From a virus (Duplodnaviria > Heunggongvirae > Uroviricota > Caudoviricetes), in IMG/VR virus record IMGVR_UViG_2778261639_000012: DNA of 8,712 nt; one strand, given 5' to 3'. Position numbers and translations under genes: made by a program. Below the pieces are notes generated by a model. That model made no database searches. It was not told where the DNA came from and saw nothing but the letters and a program-made list of their open reading frames with translations. Of this stretch, positions 1,724-6,002 are shown piece after piece; within the stretch, counting starts at the first letter, position 1, and each line of letters begins with the position of its first letter.

Positions 1724-2421
1724 TTGTCAGCTCCTTTGCGAATCTGTTCAGCCCATTCTTCAAGGGATTTCTCCGCATATTCACCGGACAGGCCATCAAT
1801 CGGGTACGGTTCATTAGCCAACTCTTCTTTCGCTGACAGAATCATGCGCGTAACGTCGAAAACTTCACGCAAAGACTTATTGATAAATCCGTGATTGAAC
1901 GCAGCAGCAAGACGGCTGGCGGTATAGTTAATCCCCTCGTTGCGTGCTTCCGCACGAATTTCAGCCAGAAAAGCATCGGTAGCTGGAGTTTCGCTGTGGT
2001 GTAGGGCATCGTTGATAATCATTGCAGCAACTCCGGCCTGCCCTGCATCCGTGACCGACACATGATCAAGAGTTACAGCCATTGCGTGTTTCAGCCCAGC
2101 GTTCTCTGCCACCAGAGCCGCGAGCTTAGTCTCAAGCGGTGCTATTCGGCACATAGCATCAATATTTGTGTCCTCCAGGCGCTTAATTTCACCAAGTAGC
2201 TCCAGTGCAACCTTTGGGTTGAATGCGGCAATATAACGAGCGTTGTTCTCTGCGTTTTTCAGTCCATCAAAGCCGGTCCATTTGATAACGTCTTCACATC
2301 GTTTATCACCGGGCGTATGCACCGCATACGTACCAGTACCCGGCGAAATAAATGCGACCCATTCGCCCTGTGTTGCCTGTTTTGCTATCTCACGCAGTGC
2401 CCGGTAATTAATTTCGCTCAC
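1720..2421 (-). CDS. Ead/Ea22-like family phage protein (233 aa from GTG; ORF track extends to 2457)
   Basis: GTG at 2421 preceded by AAGGAGG 6 nt upstream, giving N-terminus (M)SEINYRALREIAKQ, paralogous to 169..654. Contains the SETPATDAFLAE motif. The longer ORF-track start at 2457 lacks a Shine-Dalgarno and would overlap the upstream gene by 40 nt. Confidence 0.7.
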   Translation of the reverse strand: MSEINYRALREIAKQATQGEWVAFISPGTGTYAVHTPGDKRCEDVIKWTGFDGLKNAENNARYIAAFNPKVALELLGEIKRLEDTNIDAMCRIAPLETKLAALVAENAGLKHAMAVTLDHVSVTDAGQAGVAAMIINDALHHSETPATDAFLAEIRAEARNEGINYTASRLAAAFNHGFINKSLREVFDVTRMILSAKEELANEPYPIDGLSGEYAEKSLEEWAEQIRKGADK

Positions 2422-2657
2422 TGGCTGCCTCCTTTGCGGAGTTGCGCTTCGATGCACGAAAAAAAAGACTCCCGAGTATGACTGTTAAGAGCTGGTGCGA
2501 ACGCCGCGTTAAGAACGGCAGCATCACAGCCGTCATCAATATAGAGCGCAATTTTTTTCTCCAGGCGCGCTTTGGCTTCCTGCAACTGCATACCCCGGCA
2601 CGCACGCGGGATATAATCAGCAATTTGAGCGATAGCTTTTTCGTTCTGTTTAAACAT
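2418..2657 (-). CDS. Hypothetical phage protein (79 aa)
   Basis: ATG at 2657 with GAGGTGA 4-5 nt upstream; 8-nt overlap (ATGTTTAA) with the upstream gene; C-terminal ...RKGGSQ encoded by the Shine-Dalgarno of the next gene. Confidence 0.5.
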   Translation of the reverse strand: MFKQNEKAIAQIADYIPRACRGMQLQEAKARLEKKIALYIDDGCDAAVLNAAFAPALNSHTRESFFSCIEAQLRKGGSQ

Positions 2658-2853
2658 GCTTCACCTCGATAGGCTTGATGGTGTCTAACAGCAGTCGACG
2701 GCGCGTATTTTCTGCAAAGTGGCGGCGTCCGGTATCTTTGTGGTAAAACTCATTTTTGCCGACGACCCACATCCGCTCTGTTTGGTGCAGTTTTTTTACC
2801 TGCGGCCCGTCTTTGGTGATCACGGTGCCGGTATGGGTTTTTACGATTGTCAT
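2650..2853 (-). CDS. Hypothetical phage protein (67 aa)
   Basis: ATG at 2853 with GAGG about 9 nt upstream; translationally coupled to the downstream 79-aa gene. No recognisable motif. Confidence 0.45.
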   Translation of the reverse strand: MTIVKTHTGTVITKDGPQVKKLHQTERMWVVGKNEFYHKDTGRRHFAENTRRRLLLDTIKPIEVKHV

Positions 2854-2936
2854 GCCACTACCTCTTCGAACAGATGAACGAGACAGGCCGATGCTCGTCC
2901 ACCTGAAAAACTGACGATTTGATGCATACTCACGGT

Positions 2937-3227
2937 TTATTCCTGAATGCGCTTAAACTCGATTACCCACACCCAGGGATTAGCGTTCCAGCTTTCTTCA
3001 CCATAGATGGATTCCCACAGGTGCTGGAACGCAACCTTGGCCATTGCGAAATCCCTCTTGGGAGTAAGGAATGTTCCCGGGTGATCAGGAAGCAAACTTC
3101 CAGCAGGCGGAACGCCCTCAGCCCTTGCATCGCATTCGCTGATATCGTTCAACCGTTCAACGCGCACGTTGGTAATTTCCAACAGAATGGTGATGCCCAT
3201 CGCGGCATGTGAATTGATGGACGCCAC
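2937..3227 (-). CDS. ASCH-domain protein, C-terminal fragment (96-aa ORF; probably the 3' part of a frameshifted gene)
   Basis: C-terminus SIYGEESWNANPWVWVIEFKRI resembles the terminal beta-strand signature of ASCH proteins (compare E. coli YqfB ...DIYPGQTQFYVIEFK, recalled from memory). Starts only at a GTG with no Shine-Dalgarno, inside the 3' end of ORF 3149..3664. Confidence 0.45.
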   Translation of the reverse strand: MASINSHAAMGITILLEITNVRVERLNDISECDARAEGVPPAGSLLPDHPGTFLTPKRDFAMAKVAFQHLWESIYGEESWNANPWVWVIEFKRIQE

Positions 3228-3664
3228 CCACCATCAAACTTTTCATTCACAGTGTGAGGTTTCCAGTCGGCATCATCGGGTATCGACCATAAGCCGTAAT
3301 CACCAGGTTTTTGCTCACAACTGGCCCGATAAATCCTTGCTGCGTTCTTCTCATCGCCACGACAAAGGTTGTCGTTCCAGTCCACACTGCAACCATCTTC
3401 ATTGCCTAATATCGTCCATGTTTCACGAACCCAAATTCGATCGCCGACGATACCAAAGGGGCAATTGAAAACACTGCTTACACCATCAGCCCCGTACCAC
3501 TGAAAACCTGCACCAATTTCCCTAACCATCACTGGTGCTTCTGGACCAACTTCCGCAGGCTGATTTTTCATTATCCGCCGCGTCTGCGTTTTCCTTCCTT
3601 CGAGGATGGCTCGGACCATCTCATCGTTGAAAATCATGCCGCGCTCTTTCACTTCGCCTTTCAT
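3149..3664 (-). CDS. ASCH-domain protein, N-terminal part (171-aa ORF)
   Basis: ATG at 3664 with AAGGGGGA just upstream; N-terminal FNDEMVRAILEGRKTQTRR matches the ASCH GxKxxExR-type motif. ORF ends at 3149 in a different frame from the 96-aa ORF that carries the matching C-terminal ASCH strand. Confidence 0.6.
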   Translation of the reverse strand: MKGEVKERGMIFNDEMVRAILEGRKTQTRRIMKNQPAEVGPEAPVMVREIGAGFQWYGADGVSSVFNCPFGIVGDRIWVRETWTILGNEDGCSVDWNDNLCRGDEKNAARIYRASCEQKPGDYGLWSIPDDADWKPHTVNEKFDGGWRPSIHMPRWASPFCWKLPTCALNG

Positions 3665-3673
3665 GCATCCCCC

Positions 3674-3760
3674 TTACCCATGCGCGACGATGCCGCCAAA
3701 AGTGATAGAGAACAGCCAGAAATAGATCGCGGCCATAATGATTTTGAATGCCGTGTTCAT
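3674..3760 (-). CDS. Small hydrophobic peptide (28 aa, MNTAFKIIMAAIYFWLFSITFGGIVAHG), predicted single transmembrane helix
   Basis: Translated by hand. ATG at 3760 preceded by AGGAG with 8-nt spacing; TAA stop at 3676..3674, 9 nt before the ASCH gene start. Below the ORF-track length cutoff. Almost entirely hydrophobic/aromatic. Confidence 0.5.
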   Translation of the reverse strand: MNTAFKIIMAAIYFWLFSITFGGIVAHG

Positions 3761-3787
3761 ATTTTCAGCTCCTGTGATTGATTGGAT

Positions 3788-3820
3788 ACATGCCGCGCCT
3801 TGCGGCATGTTTTTATTTTC
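3788..3820 (+). terminator. Intrinsic-terminator-like hairpin oriented on the plus strand
   Basis: Stem ACATGCCGC (3788-3796), loop GCCTT, stem GCGGCATGT (3802-3810), then TTTTATTTTC (3811-3820). On the minus strand the hairpin is not followed by a U-tract. Confidence 0.5.
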
Positions 3821-3829
3821 ACTTTCTCT

Positions 3830-3859
3830 GTTTTAAAAATCAAGATTTATTAGAGCAAT
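3830..3859. repeat. 30-bp element GTTTTAAAAAT-N6-TTATTAGAGCAAT, copy A
   Basis: 26/30 identical to 5971-6000. Abuts the stop codon (3859-3861) of the HAD gene. Confidence 0.8.
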
Positions 3860-4365
3860 TATTGTTGATGGAGAAGCGCGTTTTCATACTCCCTGACCAT
3901 TAACGTAAGTACGCCGTGACTCCTGAAAACACGCGCCACGTCAATCTTATCTTCCAGCGCGAACGCAATTTTACTTAGACCAATTTTCTTCAGGAGATCA
4001 ATCTTTGCTGGACCGTCATTTCTGTCATCGGTGGCAGGACGCATAGATAGCAAAGGCTCAGTCCCATTTGTTACGTGCTTACGCAACCAGGCTCGTGTTT
4101 TATCCCTGGCTATCTCACAGCGCCCGGTTACAAACCAGAGGGTGTAAATGCCGGACAACTGGCGCACCATATCAATAACTGGAGTGATGGGAGCATCAGT
4201 GTCACAGGCAAGGTTAAACTCGTTCCAGTGCTCTGTTAATGCACCTTTGCCAGGTGGTGGAAGTAAATGCAGCCTGTCTTCCGTTGCCTCTGATATCGTC
4301 CCATCAATATCTACTATGACGATGTACGGACGTTCCTGGTGTGCGTGTTTATTGAAAATACTCAA
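3859..4365 (-). CDS. HAD-superfamily phosphatase-like protein (168 aa)
   Basis: Motif I DIDGT (IVIVDIDGTI) near the N-terminus, Thr motif II (WFVTGR), downstream Lys and acidic (EDKID) motifs consistent with the HAD fold; resembles phage polynucleotide 3'-phosphatase/nucleotidase domains. Only start is TTG at 4365, with GAGGAGG about 4 nt upstream. Confidence 0.6.
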   Translation of the reverse strand: MSIFNKHAHQERPYIVIVDIDGTISEATEDRLHLLPPPGKGALTEHWNEFNLACDTDAPITPVIDMVRQLSGIYTLWFVTGRCEIARDKTRAWLRKHVTNGTEPLLSMRPATDDRNDGPAKIDLLKKIGLSKIAFALEDKIDVARVFRSHGVLTLMVREYENALLHQQ

Positions 4366-5932: not shown

Positions 5933-6002
5933 ATATTGCTCTAATAAAAAACGTGATGAGTGTACATCACGTTTTAAAAATATGGAATTATTAGAGCAAT
6001 AT
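5933..6002. repeat. 15-bp perfect inverted repeat arms (ATATTGCTCTAATAA / TTATTAGAGCAATAT) flanking terminator T2; right arm is part of 30-bp element copy B (5971-6000)
   Basis: Read directly: 5933-5947 is the reverse complement of 5988-6002. 5971-6000 (GTTTTAAAAATATGGAATTATTAGAGCAAT) matches 3830-3859 at 26/30 positions. Confidence 0.8.
5943..5975 (-). terminator. Rho-independent terminator (mainly minus strand) nested within a 15-bp inverted repeat
   Basis: Stem AAAACGTGATG (5948-5958) / CATCACGTTTT (5965-5975), loop AGTGTA; on the minus strand followed by TTTTTTATT. Lies downstream of the stop of CDS 6002..6703. Confidence 0.65.

Follow-up and report, generated by a model that had tools for sequence, protein, structure and literature searches.

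Two overlapping open reading frames (ORFs) in a phage sequence raise the question of whether they are two genes, one gene read in two frames by design, or a single gene that has been broken. Both lie on the minus strand of the 8,712-nucleotide stretch of DNA analysed here, which we call the window. The upstream ORF (3149..3664) starts with ATG and encodes 171 amino acids, and the downstream ORF (2937..3227) starts with GTG and encodes 96. They occupy different frames, and their joint span is 728 nt. A preliminary description of the window had reported both ORFs in this span and in different frames, and the ORF list agrees. The motifs that it quoted as the two ends of an ASCH domain, EGRKTQTRR and VWVIEFKRI, are indeed present in the 171-aa and 96-aa ORFs, respectively. 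It had proposed one ancestral gene of about 242 codons carrying a 1-nt indel, and had offered a pseudogene, a sequencing error or, less probably, a programmed frameshift as the cause.

The window belongs to a P1-like phage-plasmid of E. coli and includes the minus-strand block ppp-pmgQ-pmgR-pmgS-pap-pmgT, in which the two ORFs take the place of pmgT. The annotated order in P1 is ppp, pmgQ, pmgR, pmgS, pap, the C1 operator Op88 with the pmgT promoters, and pmgT, and the window has the same arrangement. Downstream, Ea22-like genes replace P1 pmgU and pmgV, as they also do in plasmid pCFSAN004176P_03. An 801-nt query covering the two ORFs matched P1 pmgT with 97.9% DNA identity, and matched several hundred plasmids of E. 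coli, Salmonella, Klebsiella and Shigella, ~90-100 kb in size, with up to 99.8% identity. In the closest relatives, the region is one 729-nt CDS of 242 codons (WP_000675633.1 and WP_000675630.1), and the RefSeq name of the latter product is "ASCH domain-containing protein".

The signals expected to drive expression of this gene are preserved in the window. A Shine-Dalgarno sequence, AAGGGGGA, lies at 3668..3675 on the minus strand, 4 nt upstream of the ATG, and alignment shows that the start signals are identical to those of P1. Further upstream on the same strand, at 3843..3859, is a C1 repressor operator, ATTGCTCTAATAAATCT, that exactly matches P1 OpmgT/Op88 (0.04 such matches are expected by chance). 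According to the P1 annotation, OpmgT/Op88 overlaps the predicted pmgT promoters. Because the operator is identical to that of P1, the gene still lies in a C1-controlled unit.

The two ORFs correspond to successive parts of the pmgT-like gene. The 171-aa ORF is its 5' piece: codons 1-158 are native, the next 13, PFCWKLPTCALNG, are out of frame, and the ORF ends in TGA at 3149-3151. The native codons specify the ASCH octapeptide G23-R-K25-T-Q-T28-R-R30 and an insertion, at about residues 80-157, that is poorly modelled. The 96-aa ORF is a mechanical product of frame analysis that begins at GTG 3227 and opens with 13 codons in which native codons are read out of frame. The true 3' remnant, as delimited by the PHROG 874 profile and the restored translation, is 2937..3188 on the minus strand; it comprises native codons 160-242 and a TAA stop, and is shifted by -1 from the frame of the start codon. 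From the restored translation and a structural model, this remnant encodes the strand at 161-171, the invariant residues A180, E183 and G184, the helices at 209-228, and the last strand, VWVIEFKRI. Between the two pieces lies the deletion junction (3189..3190), where one minus-strand G is missing by alignment with intact genes. On the PHROG 874 profile, the 5' ORF matches positions 61-183 (E 3.5e-49) and the 3' ORF matches positions 184-259 (E 1.4e-37), so that the ORFs are collinear and without overlap on this profile, as they are on intact 729-nt genes. Judged by these profile scores, the consecutive matches are far beyond chance.

If the ORFs were two genes, homologues would be expected that end at the 171-aa stop and are accompanied by separate, conserved 96-aa genes. 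The homologues found are instead single ORFs of 204-260 aa. Among the matches listed, those of 213-260 aa align over 95-100% of the query length, and the entries of 161-175 aa are all partial proteins or are on contigs of ~1 kb or less. Distant homologues in phages of Salinibacter (219 aa), Pseudomonas (212 aa) and Roseburia (204 aa) are also single CDSs.

The lesion itself can be placed precisely. In a four-way DNA alignment there is a single gap, at which TCACGCATT in the relatives corresponds to TCAC-CATT in the window. The missing G falls at 3190/3189, within the interval from 3149 to 3227 to which the frame change had been assigned, and is the middle base of the Arg codon 159 (CGC). R159 is invariant in the family, and the site is not a homopolymer. 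Re-insertion of the G yields a 729-nt ORF of 242 codons, as the proposal of one ancestral gene with a 1-nt indel predicted, and the restored protein is 97-98% identical to two intact database proteins, P0001 and P0002 (5 and 7 residue differences). In a global alignment with pCFSAN004176P_03, the deletion is the sole indel in ~5 kb. Over window positions 1849-4182, this plasmid and the window have only two differences, both inside the pmgT-like gene. The second is a G-to-A change at 3022 (minus strand) that causes R215H in the 3' piece, at a position where the family consensus is Arg. A substitution of this kind downstream of the frameshift would fit a relaxation of constraint once the gene had been inactivated, but only one such event is seen.

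We looked for the same junction in other records. The exact 171-aa product with its shifted tail is encoded on 14 contigs, and the loci of eight of these were retrieved. Three come from GenBank assemblies (GCA_002510355.1, GCA_002226495.1 and GCA_002485275.1), of which the first contains the window itself as contig NLVG01000105.1. The other five come from Logan assemblies of separate SRA runs (SRR7042065, SRR23232029, SRR3957112, SRR32401481 and SRR10721600). All eight loci have the deletion junction, none has the intact sequence, and each matches the window with 100% identity throughout the shared 1.8-8.7 kb. Some of the SRA runs may underlie the GenBank assemblies, so the independent data sets number at least five and not surely eight, and the evidence consists of assembled contigs rather than raw reads.

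Outside this group of carriers the junction was not found. A 71-nt query spanning it matched 204 complete-genome E. coli records, 167 PLSDB plasmids and 10 phage records (in all, ~380 related records were checked), none of them exactly, and all relatives listed for this query span one extra base. A 36-nt junction query gave zero matches in both large collections, that is, complete E. coli genomes and PLSDB; it finds no seed in the intact allele and can therefore match deletion carriers only. Exact-pattern scans also returned no occurrence in genome_contigs, IMG/VR or JGI metagenome contigs, although the zero for genome_contigs says little because that collection holds one genome per species. 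Phage vB_EcoM-813R1 was considered as a second carrier, since it aligned over 801 nt versus 802, and was rejected; it has an intact 729-nt CDS, and the length difference lies elsewhere.

These data bear on whether the 242-codon gene is really intact and the missing G merely an artefact of draft assembly. As would be expected of an artefact, none of the complete genomes, plasmids and phage records searched has the allele, and the contigs that carry it are all draft or automatic assemblies. However, the same junction was recovered in three GenBank and five Logan assemblies that were made with different pipelines, and its site is not a homopolymer. That the deletion is the only indel over ~5 kb relative to the closest intact plasmid implies that the contig is not generally indel-prone, and in relatives with identical local sequence the G is routinely present in the assembly. 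The sequencing error envisaged in the preliminary description is therefore highly improbable, given an identical frameshifted product on 14 contigs. The recurrence of one non-homopolymer deletion in different runs and with different assemblers instead indicates a real mutation in one phage-plasmid clone. We conclude that the deletion is very probably a real, clonally inherited mutation and that the gene is an ordinary pseudogene, which is by far the best of the available explanations and the one of the three earlier options that our data support.

Two further readings would grant that the deletion is real but not that the gene is dead. Under programmed recoding, a -1 ribosome shift or RNA polymerase slippage in the overlap would generate the full-length ASCH protein. 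The frames overlap by 85 nt (3149-3233), a shift anywhere in this interval would give a near-native protein, and the allele persists in a circulating clone. Yet the overlap contains no in-frame X XXY YYZ heptamer and no homopolymer of four or more nucleotides. Programmed frameshifts are conserved features of gene families, not private alleles, whereas every relative examined has a single ORF, the two-frame layout is not conserved, and the junction was found nowhere else in the collections searched. A private allele without a slippery site is not a recoding signal, and we regard this reading, to which the preliminary description had already given the lowest rank, as extremely improbable. Alternatively, both pieces might be translated and come together again as an active ASCH domain, or the 5' piece might by itself have kept a function or gained a new one. 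The break lies where the insertion gives way to the C-terminal half of the barrel, a point at which complementation by fragments could in principle occur. In addition, gene callers report an 87-aa ORF starting at the ATG at 3200 on two related contigs (L010 and L011), and the small PHROGs families phrog_27495 and phrog_18361 match only the N- or the C-terminal part of the protein. This in-frame ATG shows that the 96-aa ORF does not have a GTG start only, as had been stated, although the accompanying remark that it lacks a Shine-Dalgarno sequence holds for either start. Indeed, the 3' frame has five candidate starts (GTG 3227, ATG 3200, TTG 3182, GTG 3167 and TTG 3152), and a Shine-Dalgarno-like sequence at a usable distance precedes none of them. 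They lie 1-76 nt upstream of the stop codon of the 5' ORF, which is poor geometry for coupled re-initiation. Moreover, the deletion destroys the codon for an invariant Arg, the R215H change in the 3' piece fits relaxed constraint, and a conserved split occurs in no relative. A functional split is thus very unlikely. There is a comparably slim chance that the broken allele is not dead because its 158-residue N-terminal piece works alone or reassembles with a weakly translated C-terminal piece. If so, this would explain why the unchanged frameshift allele continues to circulate. Unchanged persistence in isolates with widely spaced run accessions would also be seen if the truncated form were neutral or useful. 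Recovery of the frame at a low level is a further slim possibility.

Returning to the pseudogene, the consequences of the lesion depend on what the intact protein is. The assignment to the ASCH family in the preliminary description was upheld by fold comparison and by a conserved motif, but not by the Pfam ASCH model, which matches neither fragment nor the intact protein. Scans with Pfam and NCBIfam at E <= 1 gave no match for the intact 242-aa protein or for either fragment, and the sole match for P1 PmgT is a sub-threshold one to T4_Y13H (E 0.12). A profile of the family built from 39 sequences matched no PDB sequence at E <= 10, and a comparison of folds was therefore needed. For this purpose an AlphaFold2 model of P0002 was made from the 39-sequence alignment. 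The model is of moderate quality (mean pLDDT 59, pTM 0.59), with pLDDT of about 55-88 for residues 1-79 and 158-242, and below 50 for residues 80-157. Comparison with the PDB assigns it an ASCH/PUA-like beta-barrel fold. The best matches are 3s9x, an ASCH domain of Lactobacillus crispatus (score 8.3), and 9kyf, E. coli YqfB (7.8; 26% identity over 99 residues), followed by 2z0t (PH0355; 7.1), 1t62 (EF3133; 6.4), 1xne (PF0470; 5.7) and 5guq (Zymomonas ASCH; 4.7).

The catalytic residues of YqfB are Lys21, Thr24, Arg26 and Glu74 (PMC9599836). In alignments made with hhalign, GRKTQTRR of the pmgT-like protein is aligned with GRKTITIR of YqfB (local E 0.0064). The match of the family profile to YqfB is confined to this N-terminal octapeptide region, with a probability of 5.9%, so that sequence alone does not establish homology over the whole domain. 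Residues K25, T28, R29, R30, R159, E183 and G184, as well as the motif PSIHMP, are invariant in the family, even between phages from different phyla, and for K25, T28, R30 and E183 this extends from E. coli to the phages of Salinibacter and Roseburia. A weak local alignment places E183 opposite Glu74 of YqfB. The family thus has both a conserved N-terminal octapeptide with Lys and Thr, of the GxKxxxxR type, and an acidic partner.

The model supports a view of the intact protein as an ASCH barrel that is interrupted by a family-specific insertion of ~80 amino acids and variable length. YqfB, an N4-acetylcytidine amidohydrolase (9kyf/1te7), and other single-domain ASCH proteins are less than half as long as the intact protein, and YqfB has no counterpart of the insertion at 80-157 with its conserved Cys and Trp residues and PSIHMP. 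Also unlike YqfB, the window has its catalytic-type residues split between two frames. The insertion (window ~3191-3426, minus strand) is associated with invariant or near-invariant Cys residues, C68, C92 and C116, and with several Trp residues. Its PSIHMP motif directly precedes the break point. In the homologues from Roseburia, Pseudomonas and Salinibacter phages, the insertion is much shorter.

By analogy with YqfB and other ASCH proteins, the intact protein probably binds or hydrolyses a modified cytosine-type nucleoside or nucleic acid. More speculatively, the intact PmgT family may represent an uncharacterised YqfB-like hydrolase of modified cytosine with an extra domain. A literature search found no experimental paper on PmgT function. 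Members occur in phages of Enterobacteria, Pseudomonas, Vibrio, Salinibacter, cyanobacteria and Firmicutes, and the pmgT-like ASCH proteins are, on the basis of their sequences, a widespread phage family with putative function only. The C-terminal 84 residues have homologues in 345 phage records (184 from Salinibacter, 35 from Pseudomonas and 33 from Vibrio phages), and these records also include phages of Microcystis, Flavobacterium, Roseburia and Bacteroides. Annotations in the 345 records vary, and include RNA-binding, PUA-like, YqfB-like ASCH, PmgT and morphogenetic protein. There is modest annotation value in the observation that P1 PmgT, long listed as having a "putative morphogenetic function", is predicted to have an ASCH fold with YqfB-like conserved residues.

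In this P1-like phage-plasmid lineage, codon 159 has lost a single G. Translation from the intact start would then produce 158 native residues and end after 13 junk residues, while the remaining 83 codons, in the -1 frame and lacking a ribosome-binding site, would most likely go untranslated. The deletion separates the Lys/Thr/Arg motif in the 5' ORF from Glu183, the strand at 161-171, the C-terminal helices and the last strand in the 3' ORF. The truncated product would keep the Lys25/Thr28/Arg30 motif and would be deprived of Glu183 and of roughly half of the barrel. With only 158 native residues the barrel cannot close, so function is expected to be lost, and the broken pmgT-like gene is, from the model, most likely inactive.

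Since P1 can grow and form lysogens without pmgT, such a loss would be tolerated. A genome-wide CRISPRi screen of P1 scored the gene as non-essential, as did the earlier work that the paper cites (PMC10695390). Among P1-like phage-plasmids it is located in one of the highly variable regions, and in phage JL22 it has been replaced without effect on lysogeny (PMC9603915). A non-essential gene in a variable region fits with the expected loss of function. The event is an ordinary, lineage-specific frameshift pseudogene in an accessory gene. For annotation, the two ORFs should be merged into one frameshifted pseudogene, and not listed as two hypothetical proteins. The junction CATCACCATTCTG, in its context, provides a clone-specific marker with which this phage-plasmid lineage could be tracked in E. 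coli surveillance.

Comparison with other alleles reveals additional variation at this locus. P1 pmgT (P1_gp095, "putative morphogenetic function") and the window share the locus and its synteny, namely pap, the C1 operator Op88, a small ORF and pmgT. P1 pmgT and the 242-aa alleles of P1-like phage-plasmids have 97-99.8% DNA identity to the window, and the start codon, Shine-Dalgarno sequence and operator of P1 are identical to those of the window. Relative to all of these alleles, that of the window is one G short in codon 159 and is consequently divided between two frames. P1 PmgT differs from the 242-aa proteins at its C-terminal end: it is 309 aa long, diverges after about residue 231 and does not have the last strand VWVIEFKRI. 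Sequence comparison suggests that the reference P1 pmgT may be a 3'-rearranged, possibly non-functional form. In P1 (NC_005856.1, locus L001, 3037-3966, compared with window 2937-2970), the 78-aa extension of PmgT shares DNA with pmgU, which is read in another frame, and in a 312-aa variant (P0003) this extension is joined on at a different point.

The same gene is also broken in the P1-like Escherichia phage vB_EcoM-Ro157c2YLVW (NC_050153.1; locus L013, 837-1557), where it is annotated as two overlapping CDSs, gp66 and gp65. A second break in pmgT is in keeping with its dispensability. The lesion in this phage is a 2-nt deletion near codon 94, which converts GTGTGGACTGG to GTGT--ACTGG, and is independent of the one in the window. 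This allele also carries a mosaic replacement of codons ~30-67 that is 6 nt shorter. In vB_EcoM-813R1 (ON470617.2, locus L012), product names appear to be shifted by one gene, such that "PmgS" stands as the name of the pap homologue and "3'-phosphatase, 5'-polynucleotide kinase" as that of the intact ASCH/pmgT homologue.

Several other elements in the window were observed near this gene or elsewhere in the block. Two more sites resembling C1 operators are at 5935-5951 (plus strand) and 5984-6000 (minus strand), with 3 and 2 mismatches to the Op88 sequence, respectively. They flank the pmgQ/pmgR intergenic region and correspond to P1 OpmgRa and OpmgRb (Op86a/b). Between the C1 operator and pmgT is a small conserved ORF (3674-3808, minus strand) that is represented in RefSeq by the 44-aa protein WP_001312275.1 and is absent from the P1 reference annotation. 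Its stop codon overlaps the pmgT Shine-Dalgarno sequence, and an internal ATG following AGGAG would give a 28-aa hydrophobic peptide, MNTAFKIIMAAIYFWLFSITFGGIVAHG. Finally, positions 3788-3810 can form a hairpin with a near-perfect 10-bp stem, ACATGCCGC..GCGGCATGT. Read on the gene strand, the hairpin separates the predicted pmgT promoters from the small ORF. On the plus strand, which is antisense to the pmgT operon, TTTTATTTTC comes after it, a terminator-like arrangement.
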